Notes: generated by a model from the sequence alone, not told the origin. A stretch of DNA of 64,000 nt from an uncultured Gammaproteobacteria bacterium (GCA_964442455.1 CAYTZB010000003.1:19842-83841); one strand, 5' to 3'. Counted from the first letter of the stretch, positions 12,957-43,151 are shown. A program made the numbers and translations.

Positions 12957-13157
12957 ATGAGCACAACTGACCCACAATTTTTCTATATGATACTGGTCCT
13001 GCCGACACTTTTTGGGTTGACTTTGGTTGGGGAAGGATTGACAAAAATTTTTCGTGAAGAAAACGGAGGTTGGATGTCAGTAATATTTGGATTTTTGTTC
13101 ATTGGAGTGGTTGTGTTTGCTTTTTTCTTTTTCTCTACCCTCACACCGAAACCCTGA
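12957..13157 (+). CDS. small membrane protein, hypothetical
   Basis: 66 aa with two hydrophobic helices. Abuts the fic stop. Confidence 0.2.
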   Translation: MSTTDPQFFYMILVLPTLFGLTLVGEGLTKIFREENGGWMSVIFGFLFIGVVVFAFFFFSTLTPKP

Positions 13158-13203
13158 GAGGGTGCTTTCAGCATAATTGTCTAAACTCTAATCAAATGTT
13201 ACA

Positions 13204-15000
13204 ATGGGCGTGGAAACGTACATGACCTTTCGAGAGCTTTCCAACTATCTAGAAAAGCTTGAAAAAACTACCTCAAGAAATGAGATAACAAGGATTCTTG
13301 CTGAGTTATTCAAAAAGACTCCGGCAACAGAAATAGATAAAGTCTGTTACCTCCTCCTTGGAGAGCTTGTTCCGGCCTATAAGGGGATTGAGTTTAATTT
13401 GGCAGAGCGGATGATGGTGAGGATTCTTGCTCGGGCTTATGGTGTGGAACCAGGAAAAGTGGCAGCGATGTACAAAAAGAGTGGTGATCTGGGAGATGTG
13501 GCTACCGCCTTGGCGGCAAATTCGAAGCACGAAGCACGAAATTCGAAACTATCTGTTCCTGAGGTGTATGACCGACTTATGGAAATTGCAACAGAAGGGG
13601 GAGCAGGGAGTCAGGGGAGGAAAATTACGAAGATGGCAAAGTTACTTTTGGAATTAGATTCCATTTCTGCTAAGTTTGTAGCAAGAATTCCAGTTGGAAG
13701 ACTGCGTCTCGGTTTTTCAGACGTCACCATACTTGATGCGTTGTCGGTGATGGAAAAAGGAGACAAGTCTGCCCGACCACAGATTGAGCAGGCGTACAAT
13801 GTAACAGCCGACATCGGAATGATTGCTCAACACGTTAAGAAGGGAGGAATAGGCTCACTTTCTCGAGTAAAAGCACAGCCAGGTATTCCCATACGGCCCT
13901 CTCTTGCCGAACGACTACCCACGGCAGAAAAGATTATTGAAAAGGTAGGCCCAAAAGTAGGGGTTGAGCCAAAGTTGGATGGATTTCGGACAACCATTCA
14001 TATTTGGTATGAAGGAGGTAAAAAACAAGTGGCAACGTTTTCGCGCAATCTTGAGAATACAACGCACATGTTTCCAGAAATCATAGCGGCGGCACGAAAA
14101 CTTCCTGTCAGAAGCGTTATTTTGGATGGAGAAACAATTGGATACAATCCAAAAACTGGTAAGTTCTTACCGTTTCAAGAAACAGTGCAACGCAAACGGA
14201 AGCATGGTATTGAAGAGGCAGCAAAGAAACTCCCACTTCGTGTTTTTGTATTTGATATTTTATATCTTAATGGTCGTGACCTTCTGTCAGTTCCGTTTAT
14301 TAAACGACGCGAGATCTTAGAGAAGACACTTAAAGTGCATCAAGATGGAGTAAAGTTGGTCGTGCAGAGAATAACCTCTGATGTCGCGGTTGTTAAAGAA
14401 GAATTTAAGAAAAATATTACTGCAGGGCTCGAGGGAATTGTTGCGAAAAAGTTAGATAGTCCTTATCGTGCAGGAAGCAGAGGGTTTGAATGGATAAAAC
14501 TCAAAGGTGGTTCAGGCGCACTTGAGCAACTGCGAGCAGGAGGAAAAGGAGGACTCTTAGACACGGTTGATTGTGTCGTGATGGGTGCATACAGAGGGCG
14601 TGGGAAGCGAGCCTCTTTTGGTGTTGGAGGATTTTTGTTGGGTGTCAGAGAGGGAGACCAATACTTTACGATTTCAAGACTTGGTACTGGGCTTTCTGAT
14701 GAACAGTTCAGGGAGGCCAATAAACGTATAGAAAAATTAAAGGTTAAAGAACAGCCGAAAGAATACGTGGTAGTCAAAGAGGCCACTCCTGATATTTGGG
14801 CAAAACCTTCGCTTGTTGTTGAAATTTTGGCAGATGAGATAACCCTTTCTCCACGCCATACTGCCGGGAATAAAAGTGGACGTGGGTACTCTTTGCGTTT
14901 TCCACGCTTAGTAAGATTTAGAGATGATAAGAATGCGCAAGATGCTACTTCTGTTAAGGAAATTGAATCGATGTATAAAAGCCAAAAAACAAAAGGATAA
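13204..15000 (+). CDS. ATP-dependent DNA ligase (archaeal/eukaryotic-type)
   Basis: Adenylation motif I KLDGFR. EGIVAKK-type motif. Length about 598 aa. The N-terminal DNA-binding domain contains an in-frame repeat-derived segment NSKHEARNSK. Confidence 0.8.
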   Translation: MGVETYMTFRELSNYLEKLEKTTSRNEITRILAELFKKTPATEIDKVCYLLLGELVPAYKGIEFNLAERMMVRILARAYGVEPGKVAAMYKKSGDLGDVATALAANSKHEARNSKLSVPEVYDRLMEIATEGGAGSQGRKITKMAKLLLELDSISAKFVARIPVGRLRLGFSDVTILDALSVMEKGDKSARPQIEQAYNVTADIGMIAQHVKKGGIGSLSRVKAQPGIPIRPSLAERLPTAEKIIEKVGPKVGVEPKLDGFRTTIHIWYEGGKKQVATFSRNLENTTHMFPEIIAAARKLPVRSVILDGETIGYNPKTGKFLPFQETVQRKRKHGIEEAAKKLPLRVFVFDILYLNGRDLLSVPFIKRREILEKTLKVHQDGVKLVVQRITSDVAVVKEEFKKNITAGLEGIVAKKLDSPYRAGSRGFEWIKLKGGSGALEQLRAGGKGGLLDTVDCVVMGAYRGRGKRASFGVGGFLLGVREGDQYFTISRLGTGLSDEQFREANKRIEKLKVKEQPKEYVVVKEATPDIWAKPSLVVEILADEITLSPRHTAGNKSGRGYSLRFPRLVRFRDDKNAQDATSVKEIESMYKSQKTKG

Positions 15001-15150
15001 AAACCCAGAGGACCCGCCTAATCTTACTTTGCGCCTTTTGCAGTATTATTCATACACGGCGCAAATAGCGATTTATCGGCGGGCAAGTGCAACGACGGTT
15101 AGGGAGATAGAGAGTATGTATCAACAGCAAGGGAAAAGTAAATTTCCTTC

Positions 15151-15420
15151 TTGACAGAAAGAATTCGATACATTGTAATAGGAGGTGGGCATAGCCCATT
15201 TTTTATTGGAAATATGGATACTGAACGACGAAATGGTCAACAAAGACAGGAAATACTTCGTCGTGTCATGGACGGTAAAGTAGCTCCTGATGACACTTCA
15301 CAGCTTATGAGGAGTGTCGAAGCAGGATGGCGGGCAGAAGGAGAGTTGTTTGAAGGCCAGCCTCATGATGTAGAAATAGTGCAACAACAGCGTCTTGATT
15401 CTCAAGAAACACCCCGTTAA
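15151..15420 (+). CDS. hypothetical protein
   Basis: 89-aa ORF only. It follows a duplicated ligase 3' segment. Confidence 0.15.
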   Translation: MTERIRYIVIGGGHSPFFIGNMDTERRNGQQRQEILRRVMDGKVAPDDTSQLMRSVEAGWRAEGELFEGQPHDVEIVQQQRLDSQETPR

Positions 15421-15460
15421 GTACGCTTCTTTAATGATTGTTTAATGCTATGATTAGTTA

Positions 15461-16858
15461 ATGAATCTTGCTGCGCATACCGTTGAGCACATGCCTCCTC
15501 CTCCACGGTTTCGTGCTCTTCTCGGGCCAAGTTTCATTCTCCTTGGGTTAGGGCTAGGGAGTGGAGAACTAATTCTTTGGCCCTTTCTTACCTCGAATTA
15601 CGGTATGGGAATTATCTGGGGAGCGGTTTTAGGAATCACCATGCAGTTTTTTATCAACATGGAGATTGAACGCTACTCCTTGGTTCGAGGAGAAAGTATT
15701 TTTGTGGGTTTTGCCAGAAAACTTTCGGGGCTACCCTTTTGGTTTATATTCTCAACCTTTATTGGTTTTGGCTGGCCGGGAATTGTGGGTGCTTCAGCCA
15801 AATTGGTGGGTAATGTGTTTGGAATTGATGAGTCGCATTACGTTGCCATGGGTATGTTGGTTCTTATGGGGTTGATTTTAACATTGGGCCCCGTTCTTTA
15901 TAAAACAGTCGAGCGAGTTCAGATGGGGTTGATCGCAATTGGCGTACCAAGTATTTTTATTTTGGTGTTACTTTTAGCTGACCCAGTATCATGGGTTTCG
16001 TTCTTTAAAGGATTGGTAGGAGTGGGGGGTGGCTATTTTCTTCTACCCGAGGGATTACCAATTGCATCGTTCTTGGCTGCCTTTGCGTTTGCAGGTGCAG
16101 GAGGAAACCTTAATCTTGCGCAATCGTTCTATATTAAAGAGAAAGGGTATGGTATGGGGAGATTTAGTGGGAGGATTACGAGCATCCTGACAGGAAAGGT
16201 GGAGAATATAAAACTTGAAGGAGCGCGGTTTGAAATGGATAAGGAGAACTTGGGTCGTTTTAGAAAGTGGTGGGAGTTAATTAATAGAGAGCATTTACTG
16301 GTATTTTGGGCAACGGGTGCGTTTACTATTTCACTTTTGGGTCTTTTAGCATATGCAACAGTGTTTGGTAAAACAACACCAGCTGCCGGTATTAACTTTG
16401 TCTTGTATGAAGCAGCAGAGATTGGTCTCCAAACAGCCCCAATAATAGGGACAATTTTTTTGGTGCTTGGAGGAGTGATGCTTTTTGCAACGCAAATGAC
16501 AGTTCTCGATGCGACAAGTCGTGTTATGGCTGAAAACCTCTTGCTAATTCGAAGTCAGGTATGGAAGCCAAAGATACTTCCTAGTATTTATTATTCGTTT
16601 CTGTGGGCGCAGATTGTGTTTGGCGCAATTGTCTTTTTAACCAATCTTCGCGAGCCATTATTCCTCTTGACACTTGGAGCAGTAATTAACGCAGGAGCAA
16701 TGGCGGTTCACGTGGCGCTAACTTTATGGCTAAATATAACCTCTCTTGAGCGACAACTTCGTCCTTCTCTTTTGCGTCAAGGCGCTATGGTCGCTGCCTT
16801 TTTATTTTTGGGGTACTTTACCGCGAGGGTATTACTTGAGTCTGTTTTTAAGGTATAA
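15461..16858 (+). CDS. Nramp-like polytopic membrane transporter (putative divalent metal transporter)
   Basis: About 11 TM helices. N-terminal LLGPSFILLGLGLGSGELILWP...MQFFINMEIERYSL resembles the Nramp/MntH first-repeat signature, but distantly. Confidence 0.45.
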   Translation: MNLAAHTVEHMPPPPRFRALLGPSFILLGLGLGSGELILWPFLTSNYGMGIIWGAVLGITMQFFINMEIERYSLVRGESIFVGFARKLSGLPFWFIFSTFIGFGWPGIVGASAKLVGNVFGIDESHYVAMGMLVLMGLILTLGPVLYKTVERVQMGLIAIGVPSIFILVLLLADPVSWVSFFKGLVGVGGGYFLLPEGLPIASFLAAFAFAGAGGNLNLAQSFYIKEKGYGMGRFSGRITSILTGKVENIKLEGARFEMDKENLGRFRKWWELINREHLLVFWATGAFTISLLGLLAYATVFGKTTPAAGINFVLYEAAEIGLQTAPIIGTIFLVLGGVMLFATQMTVLDATSRVMAENLLLIRSQVWKPKILPSIYYSFLWAQIVFGAIVFLTNLREPLFLLTLGAVINAGAMAVHVALTLWLNITSLERQLRPSLLRQGAMVAAFLFLGYFTARVLLESVFKV

Positions 16859-16897
16859 AGGAGTTTTGTTGATAAGAAGGTATGGTACTATGAGACT

Positions 16898-19375
16898 ATG
16901 CCCTTCGACTCGGCTCAGAATAAACCCACTAAAGTACAAGGATTGACTTCCCAAGAAGCAAAACAAAGGCTTGCCAGGTTTGGTCCTAATATCCTTCCTG
17001 AGCGACCACCCCCATCAGATCTTGTTATTTTTATCTCACAAATCAGGAGCCCACTCGTGTATGTATTGCTTTTCGCAGCACTTGTTACCGCAACACTGGG
17101 GAAAATTGGCGATACAACAATTATCCTTACGGCAATTTTTATCAATACAGTACTTGGATTTTGGCAAGAAAGGCGCGCGAACCAAACCCTTGCATCACTT
17201 CGTCAATTGGTAGTACCACATGCAGTGGTCGCTCGAGACGGAAAACACAGGAAAATACCTCTTTCGGACGTTGTTCCAGGAGATATTGCACTACTTGCCC
17301 ATGGTGAGGGAGTACCCGCTGATGGAGAAATCACTGAGGCAGTAGATTTATTTGTTAATGAAGCGATACTCACAGGAGAGAGTAAACCCGCCCCCAAAAA
17401 GTTGGAAAGCGAGGTGTTTATGGGAACAGTGGTGGCAGGGGGTCGAGGAATAATGCGCGTTTCTGCTACTGGAGCCTCAACTGAAGTTGGAAAGATTGCG
17501 CAAGCTGTGAGTGGTCCTGCCGAACAAACTCCGCTGAAACGACAATTACATAGATTGTCCAAACAACTTGCCGCTCTTGTGGGTGTGTTGACAGTATTTG
17601 TGTTTACCTTTGGAGTACTCACCGGACGGCCATTGCTTGAAATGTTTTTAACCGCAGTGGCACTGGCAGTTTCCGCAATTCCTGAGGGACTTCTTATATC
17701 AACCACAGCAGTTCTTGCGATTGGCATGACAAAAATTCTTAAAAGAAGAGGTCTCGTACGGCGCCTCTTGGCAGCTGAGACATTGGGAGGAGTTACGGTT
17801 ATCTGCGTTGATAAAACAGGAACACTTACTGAAGGAATAATGCGTGTCGTGGGAACTGAGGGGGATAAGGAATGGTTGGTGAAAGCAACCGTACTGTGTA
17901 ACAACCTTCATGACCCGTTTGAGGTTGCACAGTTTACCTGGGCGGAAGAGAAAATAAAAACAGAAGGAGGGGATGCACAGCGCATTATTGAAACATATCC
18001 AAGAGTAGACGAGATTATATTCTCAAGCAGAGAGAAATATCAAGCTGTTCTTTGTCACGACACAGAAGCGAATAAACAAACGCTTTTTGTGATGGGGGCG
18101 CCAGAGGTGATACTTGAGAAATGCAAAATGTCGCGCCAGAACATTCTAGAATGGGAGCAACAGTTTAAGGAGTATGGAGGAAAGGGACACCGTATGGTGG
18201 GATTTGCGTATAAGGAGATTAACAGGAATCTTTCATCTCTTTCCACTAAAGAGGTAAGGGATCTTGTATGGATTGGAATTTTGCTTTTCGATGATCCTGT
18301 ACGAGCCGGTGTAAAAGAAGCATTGGAGGAAACACAGCAGGCAGGAGTTGAAGTCAAGGTGATAACAGGAGATTATCCCGATACCGCGCGTGCGGTATTG
18401 GACAAATTAGGGCTGAGGGTAGGTGATCACGAGATACTTTTAGGACCGGAGTTGGCTTCTATGGGAAGAGAAGAGCTTGAGAATCGTATCCCTAAAATAA
18501 TCCTCTTTGCTCGTACCACGCCTGAACAAAAACTAACAATTGTTGAGACACTCAAAGAACGCGGGGAAATTGTCGCGATGACCGGGGATGGTGTAAATGA
18601 TGCACCTGCACTCTCAAGAGCAGACATAGGCATTGTAGTAGGCGAAGCAAGTGAGGTTGCACGCGAATCGGCTGATTTAGTGCTTCTCGATTCGAATTTT
18701 TCAACAATTGTGGCGGCAATTGAGGAAGGGAGGGGGATTTTTGATAATCTTCGCAAGATCGTCGTTTATTTGCTGTCTGATGCATTCTCTGAAATTACGA
18801 CTGTGGTTGGTACGATTCTTCTTGCGTTTCCACTTCCTCTTACTGCTGCGCAAATACTCTGGATTAATTTAATCTCGGATGGATTTCCAAATCTTGCCTT
18901 AACAGTTGATCCTAAACGCCATGGGCTTATGAAAGAGTCTCCTCGCAATACACGAGAGCAGGTTGTGACGCGTACAATTGCGATCATCATTGGAACAGCA
19001 AGTGTATTTTCAGGAATTTTGGCATTGGTAGTGTTTGTATTCTTCTATACCACAACCAGAGATTTACACATTGCACGTTCTGTTGCATTCCTCACCCTGG
19101 GTGTTAATTCTCTCTTGTTTGTATTCTCAGTGAGAAACTTGGGGGAATTTATCTTAAGAGACGGGTGGTTAGCAAACCGGTGGTTAGTTGCGGCTGTTGG
19201 TGTTGGGTTTTTCCTCCAGGCACTTCCGTTTTACGTGCCACTCTTGCGAGAATTTTTTGGCGTTGAGCCCCTTAATATTGTTCATTGGGCGACCGCACTC
19301 GGTGCAGGAATTTTGGTGGTTTTCTTTATTGAGCTTTCAAAAGTATTATTTATTAAGAGAACAAACAATCCTTAA
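16898..19375 (+). CDS. P-type cation-transporting ATPase (P2-type, Ca2+/Mg2+-like)
   Basis: Phosphorylation motif DKTGTLT and hinge motif GDGVNDAPAL. 10-TM architecture. 825 aa. Confidence 0.85.
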   Translation: MPFDSAQNKPTKVQGLTSQEAKQRLARFGPNILPERPPPSDLVIFISQIRSPLVYVLLFAALVTATLGKIGDTTIILTAIFINTVLGFWQERRANQTLASLRQLVVPHAVVARDGKHRKIPLSDVVPGDIALLAHGEGVPADGEITEAVDLFVNEAILTGESKPAPKKLESEVFMGTVVAGGRGIMRVSATGASTEVGKIAQAVSGPAEQTPLKRQLHRLSKQLAALVGVLTVFVFTFGVLTGRPLLEMFLTAVALAVSAIPEGLLISTTAVLAIGMTKILKRRGLVRRLLAAETLGGVTVICVDKTGTLTEGIMRVVGTEGDKEWLVKATVLCNNLHDPFEVAQFTWAEEKIKTEGGDAQRIIETYPRVDEIIFSSREKYQAVLCHDTEANKQTLFVMGAPEVILEKCKMSRQNILEWEQQFKEYGGKGHRMVGFAYKEINRNLSSLSTKEVRDLVWIGILLFDDPVRAGVKEALEETQQAGVEVKVITGDYPDTARAVLDKLGLRVGDHEILLGPELASMGREELENRIPKIILFARTTPEQKLTIVETLKERGEIVAMTGDGVNDAPALSRADIGIVVGEASEVARESADLVLLDSNFSTIVAAIEEGRGIFDNLRKIVVYLLSDAFSEITTVVGTILLAFPLPLTAAQILWINLISDGFPNLALTVDPKRHGLMKESPRNTREQVVTRTIAIIIGTASVFSGILALVVFVFFYTTTRDLHIARSVAFLTLGVNSLLFVFSVRNLGEFILRDGWLANRWLVAAVGVGFFLQALPFYVPLLREFFGVEPLNIVHWATALGAGILVVFFIELSKVLFIKRTNNP

Positions 19376-19381
19376 GAGAAT

Positions 19382-20353
19382 ATGGCAATTCCTTTAGCAA
19401 TACTTATTTTTTTCTTCGTGTTCCTCCTTCTGCTTGGAGCGAATATGGTTGTTGCTGGGTTGCGTCACTTTTCTTCTACGTCAAAGACTTCTGTATTTAC
19501 CCTTTCAGCAATTCTTCTTGCGCTTGCAACATCGTTTCCAGAGCTTTTTGTTGCGTTGACATCAGGGCTTGAAGGAAGTTCAGAACTTTCATTGGGTAAT
19601 GTCTTGGGCGCTAATGTTACAAACCTTACCTTGGTGGCTGGGGGAGCAGCACTTCTTGCTGGTCGAGTGACGATGCAGGGTGCCTTTTTGCAGCGTGAAG
19701 CATGGTTTGCACTCATCGCAGGCGTAATTCCACTTGTGTTGTTATTGGATGGTGTTATATCTCGTGTTGATGGGATGATTCTTATTACTGTATGGGGAGC
19801 GTATGTTGCTCACTTCTTTCATATTCGTTTTGTACAAATTGCGCATAGACTTGTACAAGAGGGGTTTTGGTACAGATTCTTACATAGAGTTGAAGTGGAT
19901 GTTAATGGGGCGAGAAGAAAAGAGCTGGCTCGACTTTTGTTAGGGGTAGCACTGCTTCTTTTCTCAGCTGACGTCATTGTCCGGTTATCACTTTCTCTTG
20001 CAACAGACATTGGTATACCGATCTTTTTAGTAGGTGTTCTGGTCGTGGCACTTGGGACAACACTTCCTGAGCTTGCATTTTCGTTCCGCTCTCTTGCTGA
20101 TGGTGAACCACAGATGTTTTTAGGCAATATTTTGGGATCCCTTATTACGAATGCAACGCTTGTCGTAGGGGTAGCAGCGCTTCTTTCTCCTATTCGCGTT
20201 GAACTCACTCCAGTGTTAACGGTCGGCGCGGTTTTTGTTATAACGTATGCACTTTTTTGGTTTTTTATACGAACAAAGCAACGTCTTGATCGTTTTGAAG
20301 CTCTAGCTCTCGTGGTAGTGTATATTTTATTTGTGATTGTTATTCGCTCATGA
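19382..20353 (+). CDS. Ca2+/Na+ antiporter, CaCA family (YrbG-like)
   Basis: Two alpha-repeat signatures, GNVLGANVTNL and GNILGSLITNATLV. About 10 TM helices. Confidence 0.75.
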   Translation: MAIPLAILIFFFVFLLLLGANMVVAGLRHFSSTSKTSVFTLSAILLALATSFPELFVALTSGLEGSSELSLGNVLGANVTNLTLVAGGAALLAGRVTMQGAFLQREAWFALIAGVIPLVLLLDGVISRVDGMILITVWGAYVAHFFHIRFVQIAHRLVQEGFWYRFLHRVEVDVNGARRKELARLLLGVALLLFSADVIVRLSLSLATDIGIPIFLVGVLVVALGTTLPELAFSFRSLADGEPQMFLGNILGSLITNATLVVGVAALLSPIRVELTPVLTVGAVFVITYALFWFFIRTKQRLDRFEALALVVVYILFVIVIRS

Positions 20354-20383
20354 ACCTCAAAAGCGTGTTACAATTATCCTGCC

Positions 20384-21889
20384 ATGAAGGTAGTTACTGA
20401 CCTTCACTCACATTCTCGCTATGCTCGGGCGGTTTCTCAACAGATGGTGCTTCCGGTAATTTCCGAGTGGGCAGCAAGAAAAGGAATAGATGTAGTTTCG
20501 ACAGGGGATTGGACGCATCCGTTGTGGTTAAGAGAGATTCAAGCACAGCTTGAAGAAGTAGCACCAGGCCTTTATGCAGTAAGGGCGGGTGACACGGGTG
20601 GAAGGGGTCCCGACACGCGCGCAGACTTTAATGTCGAGCACTGGCGGGAGGGAAAACCCGGGGCAGGACCCGCCTTTCCATTGTTCCTTCTTTCCACAGA
20701 AGTTGCAGCAATTTATTCCCAAGGAGGAAAAGGACGTAGAATCCACATGCTTATTTTTGCACCCAGTTTGACGGCGGTTGAAAAGATAAACAAAGAGCTG
20801 ACGCGACGAGGCGCAAACCTTTTTTCTGATGGTAGGCCAATTTTGGGAATGTCGGCGCGTGATGTAACACAGATTGTATTGGAAGCGGACGAGCGGTGTC
20901 TTGTAATACCGGCTCACGCGTGGACCCCTTGGTTTTCTCTTTATGGTTCAATGTCTGGTTTCGACTCAATTGAAGAGTGTTTTGGAGATATGGCGAAATT
21001 TGTTTATGGTATTGAAACGGGATTGTCGTCCGACCCTGCAATGAATTGGAGGGTTGCTGATTTAGACAATCGGGCAATTCTTTCGTTTTCAGATGCACAT
21101 AGCCCGGCAAAGTTGGGGAGAGAGGCGACGGTGTTTGATCTGCCGGAAGTAAGCTACAACAGCATCTACGATGCTATTAGGTTATCGGGTAACTGGGACA
21201 CTGGGACACTGGGTAAAAATAATCCCAGTAACCAAGATACCCAGAAACCTAGTAACCCCAAAATTGCTTATACCATTGAGTTTTATCCTGAGGAAGGAAA
21301 ATATCATTTTACTGGCCATCGTGATTGCAACGTTCGTCAAACTCCCGAGGAGACAAAAGAGTTGGGGACTACTTGCCCTGTATGTAAAAGACTATTAACA
21401 GTTGGGGTTATGCACCGCGTTGAAGAACTTGCGAAGCGACAAAACTCGCGCCGGGCCAGAGGCCCTCAAGGGCCGGAGGCAAAACTAAAAACTAAAAATG
21501 ACGAGCATGGTGTGCGGTGGATACAGCATCAGCAGAATAATCGTCCTTCTTACGTGATGATAGTGCCGTTGCTCGAGATTTTATCGGAAGCAATTGGGTC
21601 ACTAACGACAAGCCAAAGAGTTATTAATGAGTATAAAAAGTTAACTGAATTATTGGGAAGTGAGTTCTTTGTTTTACTACAAACAAAATCCGAAGAAATC
21701 GAAAGAGTATCTGGAGGGAAAATACGAGAAGCACTTGAGAAAGTGAGAAGTGGTAATATTGTCATCGAGCCGGGGTATGATGGAGTTTTTGGAAAAGTAA
21801 AAATATGGCGTGAAGAAACGCAAAGAGCAAAGGGGAAAATGCAAAGCATAGAAGAAGAAAATAAAGAGAGCCAGATGGGACTATTCTAA
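20384..21889 (+). CDS. PHP-domain nuclease, Endonuclease Q-like (TIGR00375-type)
   Basis: N-terminal DLHSHSRYA PHP motif. Internal AHAWTPWFSLYG and SFSDAHSPAKLGRE segments as in EndoQ. C-terminal Cys/His zinc-ribbon-like HRDCN...TCPVCKR. Also carries low-complexity inserts and one copy of a GC-rich palindrome. Confidence 0.55.
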   Translation: MKVVTDLHSHSRYARAVSQQMVLPVISEWAARKGIDVVSTGDWTHPLWLREIQAQLEEVAPGLYAVRAGDTGGRGPDTRADFNVEHWREGKPGAGPAFPLFLLSTEVAAIYSQGGKGRRIHMLIFAPSLTAVEKINKELTRRGANLFSDGRPILGMSARDVTQIVLEADERCLVIPAHAWTPWFSLYGSMSGFDSIEECFGDMAKFVYGIETGLSSDPAMNWRVADLDNRAILSFSDAHSPAKLGREATVFDLPEVSYNSIYDAIRLSGNWDTGTLGKNNPSNQDTQKPSNPKIAYTIEFYPEEGKYHFTGHRDCNVRQTPEETKELGTTCPVCKRLLTVGVMHRVEELAKRQNSRRARGPQGPEAKLKTKNDEHGVRWIQHQQNNRPSYVMIVPLLEILSEAIGSLTTSQRVINEYKKLTELLGSEFFVLLQTKSEEIERVSGGKIREALEKVRSGNIVIEPGYDGVFGKVKIWREETQRAKGKMQSIEEENKESQMGLF

Positions 21890-22518
21890 TGTTTCTCTCG
21901 CGCGAACAAGCAGCCGAATTACTTGCCCAACAATTAAAAGAAAAAGGCTATGGTGGAGAGAATACTATTGTTCTTGCAATCCCGCGAGGTGGGGTGGTAA
22001 CGGGTAGAGTAGTTGCCGATGCCCTTGGTGCACCGCTTGATATTGTGATCACTCGCAAAATTCCTGCCCCCCATCAACCTGAGTTGGCGCTTGGGGCAGT
22101 TGGTCCTGAAGGGGTTAGAATTGTGAATTGGGAAACTGTCGCTCATGCAGGTGTTGATGAGGAGTATATAGATACGAAAAGTGAATTATTAGAAAAGGAA
22201 ATAGCAGAGAGAGAACGACTGTTTCGTGGTGGTAAACCTGCGCTTGATGTAAACAAAAAAGTAGTCATGGTAACTGATGATGGAGTGGCGACAGGGGCAA
22301 CGGTTGAGGCAGCAGTTGCATATCTAGGGACAAAAAATCCAAGTAAAATTGTTGTTGCTGTACCAGTTGCTTCTCAAGATGCTGTAATGAAATTAACCCC
22401 GCTTGTTGATGAGATGGTAGTGCTTGAAAGTCCGGAAGATTTCGGAGCTGTTGGTCAATTCTACAGACAGTTTCCCCAAGTAACCGACGAGGAAGTTATA
22501 GAGATACTTAGAGGTTAG
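21889..22518 (+). CDS. phosphoribosyltransferase-domain protein
   Basis: Type I PRTase PRPP-binding motif VVMVTDDGVATGATVEAA. 209 aa. Start overlaps the previous stop (ATGA). Confidence 0.65.
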   Translation: MFLSREQAAELLAQQLKEKGYGGENTIVLAIPRGGVVTGRVVADALGAPLDIVITRKIPAPHQPELALGAVGPEGVRIVNWETVAHAGVDEEYIDTKSELLEKEIAERERLFRGGKPALDVNKKVVMVTDDGVATGATVEAAVAYLGTKNPSKIVVAVPVASQDAVMKLTPLVDEMVVLESPEDFGAVGQFYRQFPQVTDEEVIEILRG

Positions 22519-22533
22519 CTATTAGAGGTTAGT

Positions 22534-22914
22534 ATGGCAAAAATAGCATCATTTGAGGATCTAAAAGTTTGGCAAAAGGCTCGAGAGTTAGTTAATATTT
22601 TGTATGATTTGACTGTTAATCTTCCTCAGGAAGAAAAATTCAACCTTATAGATCAAATGAGGCGGGCTGTGGTATCTATTACAGCAAATATAGCTGAGGG
22701 ATTTTCGCGTTACCATCTCGCAGAAAGTATTATGTTCTATCGTAATGCGCGCGGCTCACTCTCTGAATTAAAAAGTCACTTATATGTTTGTTTTGATCGT
22801 CAATATATTGACGAAGGAACTTTAGGAGATCTTTTTAGTAAGATAGATGAGGTAGGTAAAATGTTAAATGGTTTGATTAATAAAACCGAAACATTTAGAA
22901 AAACTAGGCTCTAA
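22534..22914 (+). CDS. four-helix-bundle protein (23S rRNA intervening-sequence protein family, TIGR02436-like)
   Basis: DLKVWQKARELV...ITANIAEGFSRY...ARGSLSELKSHL pattern, typical of this family. Confidence 0.75.
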   Translation: MAKIASFEDLKVWQKARELVNILYDLTVNLPQEEKFNLIDQMRRAVVSITANIAEGFSRYHLAESIMFYRNARGSLSELKSHLYVCFDRQYIDEGTLGDLFSKIDEVGKMLNGLINKTETFRKTRL

Positions 22915-22926
22915 CAGCCAATAGCT

Positions 22927-23415
22927 ATGCAACTAATAGTAGGATTGGGTAATCCAGGGAAACAGTATGAGAACACCCGACATAACGTTGGGTACATTGT
23001 AATTGAGGAACTCAAAAAGAGAAAATTACCTAAAAGTGTAGTAGCTAAGAAAACTGGTGTTTATATGAATGAGTCGGGCAAAGCAGTAAAAAAACTGACT
23101 ACTGACTACCGACTACTGACTACCGCCCTCTATGTTGTTCATGACGACTTAGATATTCCACTTGGACAGTTTAAAATTCAGTTTGCCAAAGGGCCAAAAG
23201 ATCATAAGGGAATACAATCGATTGAGGAGACGCTTGGAACAAATGAATTTTGGAGAGTTAGAGTTGGAATAGAAAATAGGGGACAGGTTACAGGGAACAG
23301 GGAAAAAGGTGAGGAATATGTGTTGCAAGATTGGACGAGTGAGGAGCGCACTATAATAGATGCTGTTATTAAGGAAGTAGTACGTGAGATTACTCGTCGG
23401 ATTCGGGAAGCTTAG
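22927..23415 (+). CDS. pth: peptidyl-tRNA hydrolase
   Basis: N-terminal LIVGLGNPGKQYENTRHNVG with catalytic His. Short low-complexity insert. Confidence 0.85.
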   Translation: MQLIVGLGNPGKQYENTRHNVGYIVIEELKKRKLPKSVVAKKTGVYMNESGKAVKKLTTDYRLLTTALYVVHDDLDIPLGQFKIQFAKGPKDHKGIQSIEETLGTNEFWRVRVGIENRGQVTGNREKGEEYVLQDWTSEERTIIDAVIKEVVREITRRIREA

Positions 23416-24043
23416 TTTCTTCTGTTGACGGCAAGAGAGAATGATGGTAATGCTTTTTAAGCAAGATAAGTGAAATTATAAATGAGGTAAATGTCAATAA
23501 GAAAAGAAGCCAGAGAAGGGTGTAAAAACCAAAGATAGATGCAATAAGTGCCCCTACAAACGATCCTGTTGCCGAGACAAGGAATGCCATGGCATTCCAG
23601 TTGCCCCATGCAATTGCAAGATGGCTGGGTGCACTTTGAGAAAGTAACACATCATATGCCGGTACTCTTATTGCTGTTGCAACGCCAAGAATAAATTGGA
23701 CCATAAAGAGTAAAGATGGAGAAGAAACAAAGAGGTAGAGAAAATACCCGAGCGATGCTACGAAGTATCCTATGACAACGAAGTGCCTGAAGTCTCTTAC
23801 TCTATCTTCAATGCGCGAGAAGAGAAAAATTCCAATTCCTGCTGTAAGGGAGTAGATAGTCACTGCAATACCCGCTTCTAAAATCCCCCCTCCCACTCGC
23901 TCGACAAAAATAGCAAAAATAGGCGCAATTAGCGATGCTCCTGTAATAAGCAATCCATCAGTTAAATAAAGAATTGCTCTCAAAATGAGGTTTGAAAATG
24001 CTTTACGAACCTGTTCTGTTAAATAAGATAGCACTTTTATCAT
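23390..24043 (-). CDS. MFS-like six-helix membrane protein (half-size; possibly truncated transporter)
   Basis: 217 aa with about 6 TM helices, resembling one half of a major-facilitator transporter. No partner half is adjacent. Confidence 0.35.
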   Translation of the reverse strand: MIKVLSYLTEQVRKAFSNLILRAILYLTDGLLITGASLIAPIFAIFVERVGGGILEAGIAVTIYSLTAGIGIFLFSRIEDRVRDFRHFVVIGYFVASLGYFLYLFVSSPSLLFMVQFILGVATAIRVPAYDVLLSQSAPSHLAIAWGNWNAMAFLVSATGSFVGALIASIFGFYTLLWLLFLLTFTSFIISLILLKKHYHHSLLPSTEETKLPESDE

Positions 24044-24071
24044 TTCCGGTCTTCTAGTCTATAATACTGGT

Positions 24072-24371
24072 ATGCAGTCTATAAAACAAATACTTGATAA
24101 ATTTGATCCCTTAAAAGATAAATACATTTCTCGGGAGTTTCAGAAGTATGGATATGAGTTAGCCGAGGAGTTGGGGGATTTAGAGCATAAAGGGCTCTAT
24201 ATGAAACTTGCAAAAGAGTTGCCAAGAGCAATATTGGAGCATGCACGGAATTTTGTGAAGGATGCGGGGAGTGTGGATTCAAGGCCGAGATTGTTCATGT
24301 GGAAAGTAACTCAGCTCCGTAAGGAACTGAAAGCACGAAGCACGAAATCCGAAGCACGAAACAATATTTAA
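24072..24371 (+). CDS. hypothetical protein; C-terminal tail encoded by a palindromic repeat
   Basis: 99-aa ORF. Its last roughly 14 codons (KARSTKSEARNNI) come from the CGAAGCACGAA repeat element. Confidence 0.3.
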   Translation: MQSIKQILDKFDPLKDKYISREFQKYGYELAEELGDLEHKGLYMKLAKELPRAILEHARNFVKDAGSVDSRPRLFMWKVTQLRKELKARSTKSEARNNI

Positions 24372-24443
24372 TGTTTTAAACATTTTAAAATTCAAAACGT
24401 TTTGAATTTGTTTCGAATTTCGATATTCGAATTTCGAATTTAT
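24329..24443. repeat. AT-rich palindromic element, CGAAGCACGAA...TTCGAATTTCG family (intergenic copy)
   Basis: GAAGCACGAA units on the left arm and TTCGAATTTCG units on the right arm form an imperfect long hairpin. Same family as the rRNA insertions. Confidence 0.6.
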
Positions 24444-24450
24444 TAAGACT

Positions 24451-25422
24451 ATGTCATTAGACGGTAACTGGATTGATTTAATAATTTTGATTATCCTTGC
24501 TTTCTATGTCCTCGAAGGATACGAGAGGGGAGTGTGGATACTTCTTGCTGATTTGGCTTCCTTTATTGGGGCGCTTGCCGCGGCACTGCGGTTTTATCCT
24601 ACGGGCAGCAAGTTTTTTATTGATAATTTTTCTCTTCCTCACTCATTTGCCAATGCGCTTGGGTTTCTGGTGATTGCAGTACTTTCTGAAGTCATTTTTT
24701 CCACTCTCATTGTACGATGGGTATTGCCTAAACTTCCGCGTGCACTATGGGAGACGCGACTGCAAAAATTCCTTGGGATTATTCCCTCCTTCATTAATGG
24801 TCTTATTCTTATTGCCTTTTTCTTGACACTTTTTATTGCGTTGCCACTTCGTCCACCCATAAAAACAGCGATTAACAACTCAAAAATTGGTGGCTACTTA
24901 GTTTCCCAAACGGTTCGGCTTGAGCGTCAATTGGCAGATATCTTTGGGGGAGCCCTTAAGGATACGTTAACTTATTTTACGATTGAGCCTCAATCTCATG
25001 AAAGCGTTCCTCTTAATTTTGAGCCAGAAGAACTTACCGTTGATGAGGCGGCGGAAACGCAAATGTTCGCACTTGTTAACAAAGAGCGTCGCGAGCGGGG
25101 AATACCCGAGCTTGTGTGGGATCAGAAAATTGTTATCGTGGCGCGAGCGCATTCACGCGACATGTGGGAGCGACGCTATTTTTCGCATGTTGACCCTGAT
25201 GGAAAAAGTCCGGGTGATCGGCTTGAACAAGGTGGTGTGAATTTTACGTACGCAGGTGAAAATCTTGCCCTTGCCCCAACGACACAGCTTGCCCACCAAG
25301 GCTTAATGAACTCTGAAGGCCACAGACGCAATATTTTAGACCCAAGTTTCAGAAGAGTGGGGATTGGAGTAATAGACGGTGGAGTTTATGGAAAGATGTT
25401 TACGCAGAACTTTGCTGATTAG
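24451..25422 (+). CDS. CvpA-like membrane domain fused to a CAP/SCP (cysteine-rich secretory protein) domain
   Basis: N-terminal multi-TM region like colicin V production protein. C-terminal CAP motifs HSRDM...GENL...GHRRNILDPSFRRVGIGV. Confidence 0.6.
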   Translation: MSLDGNWIDLIILIILAFYVLEGYERGVWILLADLASFIGALAAALRFYPTGSKFFIDNFSLPHSFANALGFLVIAVLSEVIFSTLIVRWVLPKLPRALWETRLQKFLGIIPSFINGLILIAFFLTLFIALPLRPPIKTAINNSKIGGYLVSQTVRLERQLADIFGGALKDTLTYFTIEPQSHESVPLNFEPEELTVDEAAETQMFALVNKERRERGIPELVWDQKIVIVARAHSRDMWERRYFSHVDPDGKSPGDRLEQGGVNFTYAGENLALAPTTQLAHQGLMNSEGHRRNILDPSFRRVGIGVIDGGVYGKMFTQNFAD

Positions 25423-25843
25423 GCGAAGTATTACCACTGTTTTTACTTCTTAGTTCATGGAGTTCCTCAAGAGCAGTTTTAATTTCCAGTTCTCTTTTTG
25501 GGCCGATTAGTATTAGATAATTAGATAACTGTTGGTCTTTTCCTATAGTTTCTTCGAGCTGAGTTATTGTTTCTATACCGTTCCTTCTTAGAGCTGAGTG
25601 GGTTCCATAGGGTAAACTAAGATGAGTTAGAGCGTTATCACCCCATTGTTTAATGTTCAATTGATACAGATTAAATAGTTGTCTTGCGGTATAAGGCAGA
25701 CTTTTATAATCGATTGAGGATAAATCAAGTTTTCCGTCAACACGATTCGTGGCAAAAAATTGATGGGTTCTACCCTTGTAGTTTTCAGAAAATACTTTGC
25801 CTGATTCTGACTGAAGCGGTAGGTCTTCTTCCTGTTCAGCCAT
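25400..25843 (-). CDS. hypothetical protein with RpoA-CTD-like helix-hairpin-helix segment
   Basis: LSLPYGTHSALRRNGIETITQL resembles the RNA polymerase alpha C-terminal domain HhH. 147 aa. Confidence 0.3.
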   Translation of the reverse strand: MAEQEEDLPLQSESGKVFSENYKGRTHQFFATNRVDGKLDLSSIDYKSLPYTARQLFNLYQLNIKQWGDNALTHLSLPYGTHSALRRNGIETITQLEETIGKDQQLSNYLILIGPKRELEIKTALEELHELRSKNSGNTSPNQQSSA

Positions 25844-25905
25844 AGTTTTAACAGGTTAGGTTATAATTTTACTACAACTTACTGAAATTACAAATTTTTA
25901 AAGGT

Positions 25906-26244
25906 ATGAATATGGGTAAATATGAAGAAATTTATGCAGTTGTAAGAAAGATTCCAAAAGGGAAAGTGGCAACGTATGGGCAGATAGCGAAACAGTTAAA
26001 AGTTCAAAATGCAAAGTTAAAATTTAACCCAAGATTAGTGGGACGAGCGCTTCATAAGAATCCATACCCCAAAATTATTCCGTGTCATCGGGTGGTTGAT
26101 AGAAATGGAAAAATTGCAGATAGCTTTGCCTTTGGTGGTGCAAGGGAACAAAGGAAACGATTGTTGGAAGAAGGAGTGGGATTTAAAGATACTATGCATG
26201 TGGATTTGGGGAAATGCTTTTGGGGAATTTCTGTAGTAAAATAA
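25906..26244 (+). CDS. methylated-DNA--protein-cysteine methyltransferase, DNA-binding domain (MGMT/Ogt-like)
   Basis: Active-site PCHRVV motif with the cysteine retained. Short 112-aa single-domain form. Confidence 0.7.
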   Translation: MNMGKYEEIYAVVRKIPKGKVATYGQIAKQLKVQNAKLKFNPRLVGRALHKNPYPKIIPCHRVVDRNGKIADSFAFGGAREQRKRLLEEGVGFKDTMHVDLGKCFWGISVVK

Positions 26245-26251
26245 ATGCAGG

Positions 26252-26815
26252 ATGGGTAGACAGCGCTTTCTGTTTCTTTCAATTCCTGTTTTAATTTTTA
26301 TCGCATTTTTGATTGGGACAAAAATTGGAAAGGTTGGTTTTCCATACGGTGCAGTTGCTGGCTCACTCGAAAAATTTGAATATCTCGCAAAACAACAAAG
26401 CAATGTTTGTGCAAGGCTTAGTGCAGAACAACTTTCAACTTATCCTGAAGATGCGCGACTTGCGGGTTCTTGTTGTGGACCTATGGATTTCCACAGCTAT
26501 AGTGAGCAAGTCGAGGGTTTAAAAAAATACAAAAGCATTTCTCAAATTCCAAAAGACCCATATGATATACCAGTAACGCTTGCCAAAGAGCTCCTAAGTT
26601 ATAAAGATAATATTACGCTTAATTCGGATCAGCAAAAAGTTTATGATGAGGCTACAGAATTATCTCATGAAGGTGGACCGTGTTGTTGTCGGTGTTGGCG
26701 TTGGGATGCTTTTGAAGGTTTAGCAAAATACTTAATAACACAAAATAATTTTACATCTGAACAAATTGCCAAAATTTGGGATTTGGAAGATGGGTGCGGC
26801 GGTTCGGGTCATTAG
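26252..26815 (+). CDS. membrane-anchored Cys-rich protein (uncharacterised PCC-W-D domain)
   Basis: N-terminal TM segment. Motifs GSCCGP and GGPCCCRCWRWDAFEGL. Paralogous to the C-terminal domain of the rhodanese fusion at 30588-31793. Confidence 0.35.
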   Translation: MGRQRFLFLSIPVLIFIAFLIGTKIGKVGFPYGAVAGSLEKFEYLAKQQSNVCARLSAEQLSTYPEDARLAGSCCGPMDFHSYSEQVEGLKKYKSISQIPKDPYDIPVTLAKELLSYKDNITLNSDQQKVYDEATELSHEGGPCCCRCWRWDAFEGLAKYLITQNNFTSEQIAKIWDLEDGCGGSGH

Positions 26816-42941: not shown

Positions 42942-42990
<49 letters not shown>

Positions 42991-43107
42991 ACCTGCACAA
43001 CCAGTGGAGCATGTGGTTTAATTCGAGACAAACCGAAGGACCTTACCTGGGTTTGACATGCTACCGTTCACCCCGATGGAAACATCGGGGGATCAGCAAT
43101 GATGGTA

Positions 43108-43151
<44 letters not shown>

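Follow-up and report, generated by a model that had tools for sequence, protein, structure and literature searches.

The closest described relative of the protein considered here is EndoQ of P. furiosus (PfuEndoQ; PDB 5ZB8, 7K30-7K33), a PHP nuclease whose zinc ligands are His8, His10, Glu76, His84, His139 and Asp193, in which Arg114 and His195 are likewise essential, and which carries a PIP motif in a disordered C-terminal position (PMC5961232). Its lesion pocket is formed by Thr142, Glu167, Leu168, Gly169, Leu170, Ser171 and Asn191, with Trp144 as wedge (PMC5961232, PMC8307549). Also known is a Bacillus-type EndoQ (B. pumilus / B. subtilis YqxK), another bacterial protein of the EndoQ family, to which the passages citing it in PMC5961232 and PMC6202378 attribute the same activity as that of PfuEndoQ. 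Two further families bear on the locus. TT1426 of T. thermophilus (PDB 1WD5) is a structural-genomics protein of phosphoribosyltransferase fold that provides no functional lead, its entry name being just hypothetical protein. [quoted passage not shown]

Within the window, by which we mean the whole 64,000-nucleotide stretch of DNA analysed, ORF calling places four genes in a row on the + strand, the first three exactly where an earlier, sequence-only reading of this DNA had put them: an EndoQ-like PHP nuclease gene (20384-21889, 501 aa), a gene for a TT1426-type (COG1926-like) type I phosphoribosyltransferase-domain protein, hereafter the transferase (21889-22518, 209 aa), a 4HB protein gene (22534-22914, 126 aa) and the peptidyl-tRNA hydrolase gene pth (22927-23415; TIGR00447, E 6.4e-45). 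Profile scores confirm the identities proposed for the three neighbours. The stop of the EndoQ gene and the start of the transferase gene have one base in common (TAATG, a 1-nt overlap), gaps of 15 nt and 12 nt separate the genes that follow, and a scan of the locus found no convincing promoter or terminator between the genes of this row. Their co-orientation is weak evidence of an association because about 88% of the window's genes already lie on the + strand. The 501-aa protein is identical to one from a Candidatus Microgenomates bacterium (P0001), and the source genome is that of a Candidatus Microgenomates (CPR/Patescibacteria) bacterium.

The assignment of the 501-aa protein to the EndoQ family, proposed on the basis of its PHP start DLHSHSRYA and the stretches AHAWTPWFSLYG and SFSDAHSPAKLGRE, all of which are found in the translation, is borne out by sequence and structure comparisons alike. 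The protein matches TIGR00375 (E 2.4e-45, 155.5 bits) and, as a single-sequence query, the PfuEndoQ chains (E 5.6e-46). A profile built from 20 homologues gives a single colinear alignment to PfuEndoQ (E 3e-68; positions 3-433 against residues 3-388), and Foldseek searches with an AF2 model (pTM 0.80) retrieve 5zb8 and 7k30 at E 4e-34 to 2e-31 with TM-scores of 0.82-0.84. The TIGR00375 score lies well under the curated cut-off of that model (326.6 bits; model type 'hypoth_equivalog'), a shortfall that reflects divergence and inserts and no missing domain. Identity to PfuEndoQ is about 27%, and PF27218 (MJ0043_C) is a precomputed Pfam domain on the identical protein P0001. These alignments and the model show the window protein to be a full-length, stand-alone bacterial member of the EndoQ family.

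PfuEndoQ and the window protein have the same colinear three-domain layout. In the latter, the PHP catalytic domain (20384-21190, aa 1-269) contains a first variable insert (20582-20683, aa 67-100; pLDDT <50 at 72-96) whose length ranges from 0 to ~50 residues across homologues; a second, low-complexity insert (21191-21259, aa 270-292; pLDDT <50 at 271-289) occupies the junction with the zinc-binding domain (21269-21439, aa 296-352); and a third (21440-21532, aa 353-383; low pLDDT at 353-366) precedes the C-terminal helical domain MJ0043_C (21533-21811, aa 384-476; pLDDT ~90), which aligns with Pfu residues 293-388. A charged tail predicted to be disordered (21815-21886, aa 478-501; pLDDT <30) ends the protein, and all of these features are encoded on the + strand. 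The three variable low-complexity inserts, ~90 residues in total, and 7 extra residues (IYSQGG...) following the catalytic Glu set the window protein apart from PfuEndoQ, inserts 2 and 3 having no counterpart there in the profile alignment.

Sequence and profile alignments to PfuEndoQ, read against the residue lists in PMC5961232 and PMC8307549, show that every mappable catalytic, wedge and lesion-pocket side chain is kept in the window protein. The metal-binding and essential residues H8, H10, E76, H84, R114, H139, D193 and H195 of PfuEndoQ correspond to H8, H10, E106, H121, R151, H178, D237 and H239, and the wedge and pocket residues T142, W144, E167, G169, L170 and S171 to T181, W183, E211, G213, L214 and S215, respectively. 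None of the listed PHP-domain residues other than H8 and W183 varies among 20 homologues; for L214 this holds in homologue set A2, with conservation of 90% or more in set A1. The Gln found in place of H8 in about a quarter of homologues is tolerable, since the Pfu H8A mutant is still active (PMC5961232). Side chains are changed at Pfu L168 and N191 (window T212 and F235), two residues that line the Pfu pocket with main-chain atoms only, and basic character is lost at the Pfu DNA-backbone contacts R251 and K276 (window D314 and T339), mutation of which causes a moderate drop in Pfu activity (PMC5961232). [quoted passage not shown] Its ligands H312, C315, C331 and C334 align with Pfu C249, C252, C268 and C271; the four positions are invariant among the 20 homologues, and of 269 bacterial relatives, 264 have His at the first of them. 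The site is predicted to be a variant His-Cys3 ligand set instead of the Cys4 set of PfuEndoQ, where the first ligand is Cys.

Comparison with the Bacillus-type EndoQ, made through the Brevibacillus laterosporus orthologue (L123:2983-4164), places the window protein in a different bacterial branch from the characterised enzymes. The two have the PHP ligands and the GKYH...C...CPxC region in common, at 26-33% identity, but the Bacillus-type protein has a Cys4 zinc site, is devoid of the SDGRP loop region, stops directly after the helical domain with neither tail nor QxxLF, and resides in a sporulation-related neighbourhood (NUDIX - EndoQ - spoIIM - fur). Other bacteria encode fusions of EndoQ to a UvrD/PcrA helicase (1000-1200 aa), whose N-terminal 420 residues match the same profile (E ~1e-140) and which share with the window protein both the His first zinc ligand and the QxxLF end; unlike them, the window protein has no helicase domain. 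The older, wrong database name of the window protein, 'DNA helicase UvrD', stems from such fusions, and homologues already bear the NCBI name 'endonuclease Q family protein'.

The last five residues of the window protein, QMGLF (21872-21886, + strand; aa 497-501), form a candidate beta-clamp-binding motif that matches the bacterial clamp-motif consensus QL[SD]LF. In the 20-homologue alignment, Q497 and F501 never vary, and conservation of L500 reaches 90% or more. A Qxx[LIMV]F motif or its hexapeptide variant forms the C-terminus in 65 of 79 relatives (one per locus), motifs of this type having an internal background rate of 2.6e-4 per position, and the tail motif ends 116 of the 120 top matches. 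Among 95 long forms (>=900 aa, of which three were scanned, all of them EndoQ-UvrD fusions), 64 have it at the end of the helicase, which shows selection for the protein's terminus. Both PfuEndoQ and the window protein have a C-terminal tail that is disordered (predicted in the latter), with the PIP sequence QRTLLQYI in the former and QMGLF, a candidate clamp motif of bacterial type, in the latter, where no Thermococcales-type PIP box is found. The conservation and position of this tail suggest that it is most likely the bacterial counterpart of the archaeal PIP motif and a tether to the beta clamp; no dnaN was seen in the window.

By homology with PfuEndoQ, we infer that an abasic site or a base deaminated to uracil, hypoxanthine or xanthine would be flipped into a rigid pocket next to the zinc site of the PHP domain, with W183 as wedge, and that EndoQ, most likely tethered to the beta sliding clamp by its QMGLF-ended disordered tail, would hydrolyse the phosphodiester bond directly 5' of the lesion. 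The nick could then be processed by strand-displacement synthesis and by two candidate downstream enzymes encoded on the + strand of the window, a stand-alone 5'-3' exonuclease/flap endonuclease of the Pol I N-terminal type (5954-6979) and, as nick sealer, a Lig1-type ATP-dependent DNA ligase (13204-15000; TIGR00574 423.8 bits against a cut-off of 217.8), which synteny places in the same gene row in relatives. The C-terminus of the exonuclease/flap endonuclease reads ...GEQQLKLV. The other repair genes listed in the sequence-only reading, encoding an MGMT-like protein (25906-26244), Fpg (8687-9553), RecF (9657-10706) and RadA (50485-51867), are all present, as is the ligase, and the gene content (EndoQ, Lig1-type ligase, MGMT) would agree with a repair set made up partly of archaeal-like parts. 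The EndoQ-UvrD-type fusions found elsewhere in bacteria fit a nick-initiated excision pathway. Indirect support for cleavage 5' of dU, dI, dX or an AP site by the window EndoQ comes by analogy from gene replacement: in three lineages (L111/112, L115 and L120-122), the slot of EndoQ between the ligase-side genes and DUF4870-4HB-pth is occupied by a family-4 UDG (TIGR00758, 175-196 bits against a cut-off of 125.3), and in L114 mere fragments of EndoQ are left there. Family-4 UDG shares the position in the Microgenomates row and the lesion, uracil in DNA, but has an unrelated fold and excises the base where EndoQ would incise the strand, making it an analogue and no homologue; its presence in the slot supports a uracil-repair role of EndoQ.

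Other readings of the 501-aa protein concern its identity and its purpose. That it belongs to another PHP subfamily (histidinol phosphatase, Pol X/Pol III PHP or RNase AM/YcdX type) and is no lesion endonuclease might be argued from the TIGR00375 score under the curated cut-off and from Pfam-A, in which a marginal PHP_C match (21.5 bits) stands alone. We find this extremely improbable, given the colinearity with PfuEndoQ across all three domains and the presence of both the EndoQ-specific zinc domain and the MJ0043_C domain; the profile colinearity and the Foldseek separation (E ~1e-34 for EndoQ against E >= 2e-5 for other PHP proteins, the next-best PHP structure being found at E 2e-5 and TM 0.43) rule such an identity out. 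As to purpose, a review has raised the idea of phage restriction for Bacillus EndoQ (PMC8307549), and the window carries a SoFic-like Fic gene 8 kb ahead of EndoQ, so that the protein might chiefly restrict phages with uracil-containing or otherwise modified DNA, possibly in addition to a role in repair. Restriction as the chief role nevertheless appears improbable to us: the EndoQ locus is a conserved row of housekeeping and repair genes (ligase, pth, MGMT) and no variable defence island, EndoQ is interchangeable there with a repair UDG, no phage-borne EndoQ homologue was found, and the candidate clamp-binding tail would suit replication-coupled repair. Searches of PADLOC-DB returned no match to defence-system models for EndoQ and the 4HB protein, and for the transferase a ShosT match alone (15.8 bits), within the PRPP loop. 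Lesion repair is the probable function of the window EndoQ.

The transferase matches PF00156 (Pribosyltran; E 1.9e-14, 53.7 bits against a cut-off of 26.3) and, over its full length (residues 2-207), TT1426/1wd5 (E 3.8e-37), with which it has in common a PRPP-binding loop, intact in the window protein as VVMVTDDGVATGAT (a hydrophobic run, two acidic residues, G-x-T-G); none of the equivalog models for named transferases or for Prs matched it at its cut-off. The suggestion that the transferase and the 4HB protein form an uncharacterised functional module with EndoQ draws on the tight packing and co-orientation of the three genes and on the lack of a convincing internal promoter or terminator. 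It does not survive comparison of 80 EndoQ loci, among which the pairing is not general: in 13 of them the transferase comes directly after EndoQ in the same orientation, always with a gene row of the window's Microgenomates type, a 4HB gene follows EndoQ in none, and pth is found downstream in 26. The nearest relatives of the window, with transferases 93-94% identical, are without the 4HB gene; close homologues of the latter are found upstream of pth in loci that have EndoQ, in those with a degraded copy or with UDG in its place, and in those without it; and the transferase is still beside pth in L110, where EndoQ is missing. Together with the want of a PADLOC defence match beyond the 15.8-bit one to ShosT and with the + strand being the default, these observations make the three-gene module highly unlikely, and we regard it as largely refuted. 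A lineage-specific Microgenomates pair of EndoQ and transferase alone, serving for example nucleotide salvage coupled to repair in organisms incapable of de novo nucleotide synthesis, fares a little better while still being unlikely. The TAATG overlap is shared by the window and its three nearest relatives (L081, L082 and L083), pointing to real co-translation of the two genes in this sub-lineage; the transferase occurs nowhere else in the ~0.9 Mb of EndoQ-flanking sequence than in the 13 loci; and its PRPP loop is intact. Against the pair, most of the 13 loci have the two genes kept apart by a DUF4870 gene or by several hundred nt, L110 keeps the transferase by pth without EndoQ, and 25 of 27 loci retrieved with the transferase as query had no EndoQ match, eight of these having enough upstream sequence (>= ~1.8 kb) and the rest being uninformative. 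Moreover, the chemistry of EndoQ is DNA nicking, which releases no free base for a transferase (PMC5961232). The neighbouring genes are members of a conserved Microgenomates gene row and no partners of EndoQ. This row leads from the ligase to a Na/Ca exchanger and then to a slot holding EndoQ, family-4 UDG or nothing, followed by the optional genes for a small DUF4870 membrane protein, the transferase and the 4HB protein, by pth and, further on, by MGMT.

Within this row the 4HB gene forms a cassette of its own, attached to pth irrespective of the presence of EndoQ. Its product, identical to a protein named 'four helix bundle protein' (P0121), scores far over both curated cut-offs (TIGR02436, 113.9 bits against 24; PF05635, 126 bits against 33.8). 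In all contexts examined, in eight Microgenomates lineages, its close homologues immediately precede pth; they are more conserved than pth (60-74% against 31-58% identity). The gene has a GC content of 34%, compared to 40-46% in adjoining genes. Directly upstream of its start and overlapping the transferase stop codon is an array of TTAGNNN heptads (TTAGAGG TTAGCTA TTAGAGG TTAGTAT; 22508-22535, + strand); related loci totalling 1.14 Mb contain 18 such arrays, 16 of them no more than 120 nt away from a 4HB gene. At the 3' boundary of the cassette (22899-22928, + strand), CTAGGCTCTAA overlaps the 4HB stop and shows complementarity to the TTAGAG motifs upstream, and TAGCTAT repeats positions 22516-22522. 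The stem bracketing the cassette pairs TAGAG..CTTAG with CTAAGCTCTA, which overlaps the stop codon; 8 of 8 lineages retain its 10-bp outer part, and covariation is slight. Complementary sequence also brackets rRNA intervening sequences, but the relatives found there reside in rRNA whereas the window 4HB gene lies between protein-coding genes. The Avd protein of diversity-generating retroelements was considered and rejected as an identity for the 4HB protein (NF033474, 50.5 bits, under the cut-off of 80); no reverse transcriptase was found among the window ORFs scanned.

Far from being only sporadic in bacteria, as had been supposed, EndoQ relatives occur in no fewer than 598 bacterial genomes of species level and make up at least 8000 clusters at 90% identity and, counting matches with E <= 1e-30, at least 1222 clusters at 50% identity, and the family is common in uncultivated bacteria. 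We lean slightly towards the view that this bacterial branch swapped the PCNA motif for a beta-clamp motif and that, in many CPR bacteria, it replaces UDG as the main route of uracil repair. More tentatively, and with considerable doubt, the 4HB gene may be an intervening-sequence-type cassette sitting within a row of protein-coding genes, outside rRNA. If so, one would be dealing with an element that is either mobile and site-specific or processed by RNase III, or else with a factor that has a functional tie to pth and translation; in either case the widespread, uncharacterised 4HB family would gain its first testable context outside rRNA.

The gene set proposed by the sequence-only reading is present in the window: open reading frames and domain searches agree on a 501-aa EndoQ-like nuclease (20384-21889, + strand; TIGR00375, E = 2.4e-45), a 209-aa transferase (21889-22518, + strand; PF00156) whose ATG shares one base with the EndoQ stop codon (TAATG), a 126-aa four-helix-bundle (4HB) protein (22534-22914, + strand; TIGR02436 and PF05635, far above the cut-offs) and pth (22927-23415, + strand; TIGR00447). 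All of the motifs it had quoted occur in the 501-aa translation, and the other repair genes it had named were located elsewhere in the window, namely those encoding a Lig1-type ATP-dependent ligase (13204-15000), an MGMT-like protein (25906-26244), Fpg (8687-9553), RecF (9657-10706) and RadA (50485-51867). The window also encodes a stand-alone 5'-3' exonuclease/flap endonuclease (5954-6979). At 155.5 bits, the match of the nuclease to TIGR00375 lies under the curated cut-off of 326.6. Searched alone, the 501-aa protein aligned with the chains of Pyrococcus furiosus EndoQ (PfuEndoQ) in four colinear segments (E = 5.6e-46), and a profile built from 20 homologues aligned with them in one stretch (profile positions 3-433, residues 3-388; E = 3e-68). 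The AlphaFold model of the protein (pTM 0.80) matches the PfuEndoQ structures 5zb8 and 7k30 with E values of 4e-34 to 2e-31 and target-normalised TM scores of 0.82-0.84, and the PHP protein ranking second reaches only E = 2e-5 and a TM score of 0.43, a gap that rules out assignment to a different PHP subfamily. Profile searches and predicted fold both point to a real EndoQ; the protein adds one member to a family that is already known, and correctly named, in current databases.

All of the catalytic, wedge and pocket side chains of PfuEndoQ that could be mapped, using residue lists taken from PMC5961232 and PMC8307549, are kept in the window protein. The metal ligands H8, H10, E76, H84, H139 and D193 of the Pyrococcus enzyme correspond to H8, H10, E106, H121, H178 and D237, the essential residues R114 and H195 to R151 and H239, the wedge residue W144 to W183, and the pocket residues T142, E167, G169, L170 and S171 to T181, E211, G213, L214 and S215. 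The mapped residues are invariant in the homologue alignments with the exception of H8 and W183, L214 being at least 90% conserved; the position of H8 is occupied by Gln in about one quarter of the homologues, and an H8A mutant of PfuEndoQ is still active (PMC5961232). Two pocket positions differ, Pfu L168 being T212 and N191 being F235 in the window protein, and it is by their main-chain atoms only that L168 and N191 line the pocket of the Pyrococcus enzyme (PMC5961232). Two contacts of PfuEndoQ with the DNA backbone are likewise not basic here (R251, which is D314, and K276, which is T339); mutation of R251 and K276 lowered activity only moderately (PMC5961232).

The window EndoQ nevertheless differs from PfuEndoQ in a number of features. 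Its first zinc ligand is a His, as in 264 of 269 bacterial relatives, and H312, C315, C331 and C334 are invariant; seven extra residues follow the catalytic Glu; three inserts of variable length (aa 67-100, 270-292 and 353-383) are predicted to be disordered; and the tail (aa 478-501) is charged, predicted to be disordered and closes in QMGLF. The Bacillus-type enzyme, represented by a Brevibacillus YqxK orthologue, has a Cys4 site and neither the SDGRP loop nor the tail, and is a branch other than that of the window protein. Within the tail motif the homologue alignment shows no change at Q497 or F501 and hardly any at L500. Of 79 relatives that the genome scan supplied, 65 have a C-terminal Qxx[LIMV]F or its hexapeptide variant, relative to a background of 2.6e-4 per internal position, as do 116 of the 120 top database matches. 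The motif also stands at the protein end in 64 of 95 long forms of at least 900 aa (three of the 95 were scanned, all of them EndoQ-UvrD fusions), which argues that selection acts on the protein terminus rather than on the EndoQ fold. In bacteria, the classical motif for binding the beta clamp is a terminal pentapeptide of the QL[SD]LF type. Given that the PCNA-binding PIP motif of PfuEndoQ likewise occupies a disordered C-terminal position (PMC5961232) and that QMGLF is terminal in the window protein, we infer that the PCNA tether has probably been swapped for a beta-clamp tether in this enzyme. The literature search found no paper linking EndoQ to CPR bacteria (Patescibacteria) or to the beta clamp. 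The C-terminus of the exonuclease encoded at 5954-6979, a Lys-rich linker followed by GEQQLKLV, resembles a clamp-binding motif as does the EndoQ tail.

EndoQ has been described from most Euryarchaeota and from only limited groups of bacteria (PMC5961232, PMC6202378), and its occurrence in bacteria had been taken as sporadic in the sequence-only reading. This does not hold: the genome scan yielded at least 598 confirmed relatives, a word-indexed search at least 8000 matches, and an exhaustive profile search 4357 clusters at 50% identity (E <= 1e-3), 1222 of them at E <= 1e-30. Among the matches listed, most relatives are Patescibacteria (Microgenomates, Parcubacteria, Saccharibacteria), and others come from Nitrospirota/Thermodesulfovibrionia, Syntrophaceae, Thermodesulfobacteriota, Omnitrophota, Margulisiibacteriota, Acetothermia and Dehalococcoidia. 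The searches show a large bacterial EndoQ branch, dominant in CPR/Patescibacteria and extending to Nitrospirota, Thermodesulfobacteriota, Omnitrophota and further phyla, whose signature is a His-Cys3 zinc site, frequent fusion to a UvrD-type helicase and a terminal QxxLF tail. Lengths of 1000-1200 aa are common among the top cluster representatives (P0271, P0281, P0301 and P0261 among other database proteins, and also the protein of locus L060), and a UvrD/PcrA helicase follows the N-terminal EndoQ in all four long representatives scanned. The existence of such fusions accounts for the old NCBI name of the window protein, 'DNA helicase UvrD'; newer NCBI records already designate homologues 'endonuclease Q family protein'. 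Some EndoQ genes, such as P0243 (891 aa) and P0249 (936 aa), bear inteins near profile positions 158-220, in the PHP domain, that carry LAGLIDADG_3 endonucleases. No EndoQ homologue was found in the phage collection, and a PADLOC scan of the EndoQ, transferase and 4HB proteins returned no defence-system match other than one of 15.8 bits in the PRPP loop of the transferase.

The window EndoQ is identical to a protein of a 'Candidatus Microgenomates bacterium' (CPR/Patescibacteria), and other traits of the window, including insertions in its rRNA genes, a LAGLIDADG_3 open reading frame in the 16S gene, genes lying nearly all on one strand and the GC skew, fit a CPR origin. Close to its 3' end the 16S gene (41893-44328) is interrupted by about 700 nt of inserted sequence, in which a LAGLIDADG_3 homing endonuclease is encoded (43738-44250); the Rfam match stops at 43595 and the true 3' end (GATCACCTCCTT) lies past the open reading frame, at 44314-44325, an arrangement consistent with published CPR 16S insertions. 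The 23S match (45451-49107) spans 3657 nt for a model of 2925 nt, so that insertions amount to about 730 nt. Up to about 52 kb all 2-kb bins have a positive GC skew; beyond that point it is near zero, with one slightly negative bin. A single replichore arm probably holds the whole window, a position that makes co-orientation uninformative as to operons. A Fic-domain protein (11896-12954; PADLOC SoFic match, E = 3.4e-48) has a Fic counterpart at the corresponding place in L082, one of the nearest relatives.

The suggestion that the transferase and the 4HB protein form an uncharacterised module with EndoQ found no support when the neighbourhood was compared across related genomes. In a sample of 80 EndoQ loci whose flanks were searched with the window proteins, pth was found downstream of EndoQ in 26, a 99-aa open reading frame in 19 and the transferase in 13, always on the same strand and between EndoQ and pth; the 4HB gene was downstream in none of the 80. 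The 13 loci with the transferase are all of the Microgenomates row type of the window, and outside that group the gene after EndoQ varies (Wzy-like, MFS, DUF498, beta-CASP, FtsZ, thioredoxin). A search started from the transferase recovered 27 metagenomic loci, of which 25 lacked an EndoQ match, most being too short to inform since only eight of the 25 have about 1.8 kb or more of upstream sequence; the remaining two carry EndoQ and belong to the window's own lineage. The EndoQ/transferase overlap is kept in the three nearest relatives and the next slot differs: the transferase abuts pth in L082-L084, and an unrelated 182-aa open reading frame lies there in L081. Instead of a three-gene module, the row is accordingly a synteny block of this lineage in which one slot varies. 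With about 88% of the genes on the + strand, co-orientation carries little meaning, and counts of predicted promoters and terminators in 13000-26500 are at chance level and therefore silent on operon limits. Identities of L081 to the window are uneven (CvpA/CAP 96%, transferase 93%, Na/Ca exchanger 91%, EndoQ 75%, pth 57%; the pth of L082 is 78% identical), a pattern that suggests either recombination or more rapid change near the variable slot. The gene for a half-size MFS protein of 217 aa (23390-24043, - strand) shares 26 nt at its 3' end with the end of pth; this arrangement is kept in L081, and gene order is the same in L084.

The 4HB gene forms a unit of its own, tied to pth. Its closest homologues (60-74% identical) all lie directly upstream of pth, in 13 loci from seven additional lineages, and it is what precedes them that changes: a Na/Ca exchanger and the transferase, with EndoQ absent, in L110; EndoQ and DUF4870 in L116; a PCMT-type methyltransferase in L113; a glycoside hydrolase and DUF4870 in L117-119; and EndoQ fragments and DUF4870 in L114. 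The finding of homologues at the same site elsewhere excludes an insertion unique to this genome. Four TTAGNNN heptads (22508-22535) precede the 4HB start and overlap the transferase stop, and a 3' element, CTAGGCTCTAA, complementary to the upstream TTAGAG motifs, overlaps the 4HB stop. TTAGNNN arrays together with a complementary CTAAGCTCTAA element enclose the 4HB gene linked to pth, both in the window (22508-22535 and 22899-22928) and in L111, L113 and L117-L122, and 16 of the 18 TTAGNNN arrays found in 1.14 Mb are within 120 nt of a 4HB gene. The flanks can pair in nine of nine loci from six lineages (-26 to -39 kcal/mol; z -2.3 to -5.0 relative to shuffles), and RNAalifold recovered a 10-bp outer stem in eight of eight lineages with almost no covariation. 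The minimum-free-energy fold of the window unit pairs its two ends; the centroid structure does not join them.

The unit may be a mobile cassette or else an old gene that has often been lost. Its make-up recalls the 23S rRNA intervening sequences, likewise bounded by a stem, from which the family takes its name, and rRNA insertions of CPR bacteria carry such open reading frames (bioRxiv 10.1101/2024.02.27.582315). The GC content of the gene is below that of its neighbours, and the 4HB protein is more conserved than pth in the same loci. The ends of the unit are marked by a 7-nt direct repeat (TAGCTAT) and a 17-nt imperfect inverted repeat, which were considered as a target-site duplication and discarded as too short, and partly palindromic, to stand as one by themselves; the comparison across lineages carries more weight, even with its near lack of covariation. 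A diversity-generating retroelement (DGR) was also rejected, the Avd model scoring under its cut-off and a reverse transcriptase being absent from the window open reading frames scanned, and an Rfam scan of 22300-23100 gave no family match at E <= 1. Elsewhere in the window, a 139-aa open reading frame (60027-60446) scores 24.6 bits against PF05635 (cut-off 33.8) and returned no tblastn match with the 4HB protein; it may be a degraded second copy or a chance resemblance.

Tracing the 4HB homologues also disclosed an alternation at the EndoQ position. In L111/112, L115 and L120-122 the row runs from the ligase to a family-4 uracil-DNA glycosylase (UDG), DUF4870, 4HB and pth, with MGMT further on, and the UDG occupies the slot of EndoQ (L111:1957-2607, L115:2463-3086, L120:2359-3018); the UDGs of L111, L115 and L120 exceed the cut-off for family 4. 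Neither the window nor the regions flanking the 80 EndoQ loci yielded a UDG. Alternation of the two at one row position amounts to in-situ displacement by an analogue, which supports a role of EndoQ in uracil repair. In L114, four tblastn pieces of EndoQ (residues 1-125, 209-235 and 417-487) lie between the Na/Ca exchanger and DUF4870 (L114:751-1680), in what looks, from the sequence, like a decaying EndoQ gene.

In the repair pathway that is most probable, EndoQ would be recruited by the clamp, a uracil, hypoxanthine, xanthine or abasic residue would be flipped into the pocket that adjoins the PHP zinc site, and the strand would be nicked 5' of the lesion, flipping and nicking being proposed from the conserved residues and the Pfu structures. 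Strand-displacement synthesis may then raise a lesion-bearing flap for the 5'-3' exonuclease (5954-6979) to cut, and the Lig1-type ligase (13204-15000) would seal the nick; these displacement, flap and sealing steps are deduced from gene content and the archaeal pathway. Where a UvrD-type helicase is fused to EndoQ, as in other bacteria, it is presumably this helicase that takes over after the nick.

Basic classification is unchanged by this work, as databases already name the EndoQ family, and annotation of the transferase and the 4HB protein as partners of EndoQ should be avoided. The weight of the observation is modest and comes mainly from the proposed clamp-motif swap, the EndoQ/UDG alternation and the pth-attached 4HB cassette. 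That EndoQ and family-4 UDG take turns at a single locus is a natural experiment in support of their functional equivalence. If the tail binds the beta clamp, one repair nuclease would have been re-wired from PCNA to the bacterial clamp, and incision repair of deaminated bases would be coupled to replication in bacteria with small genomes.
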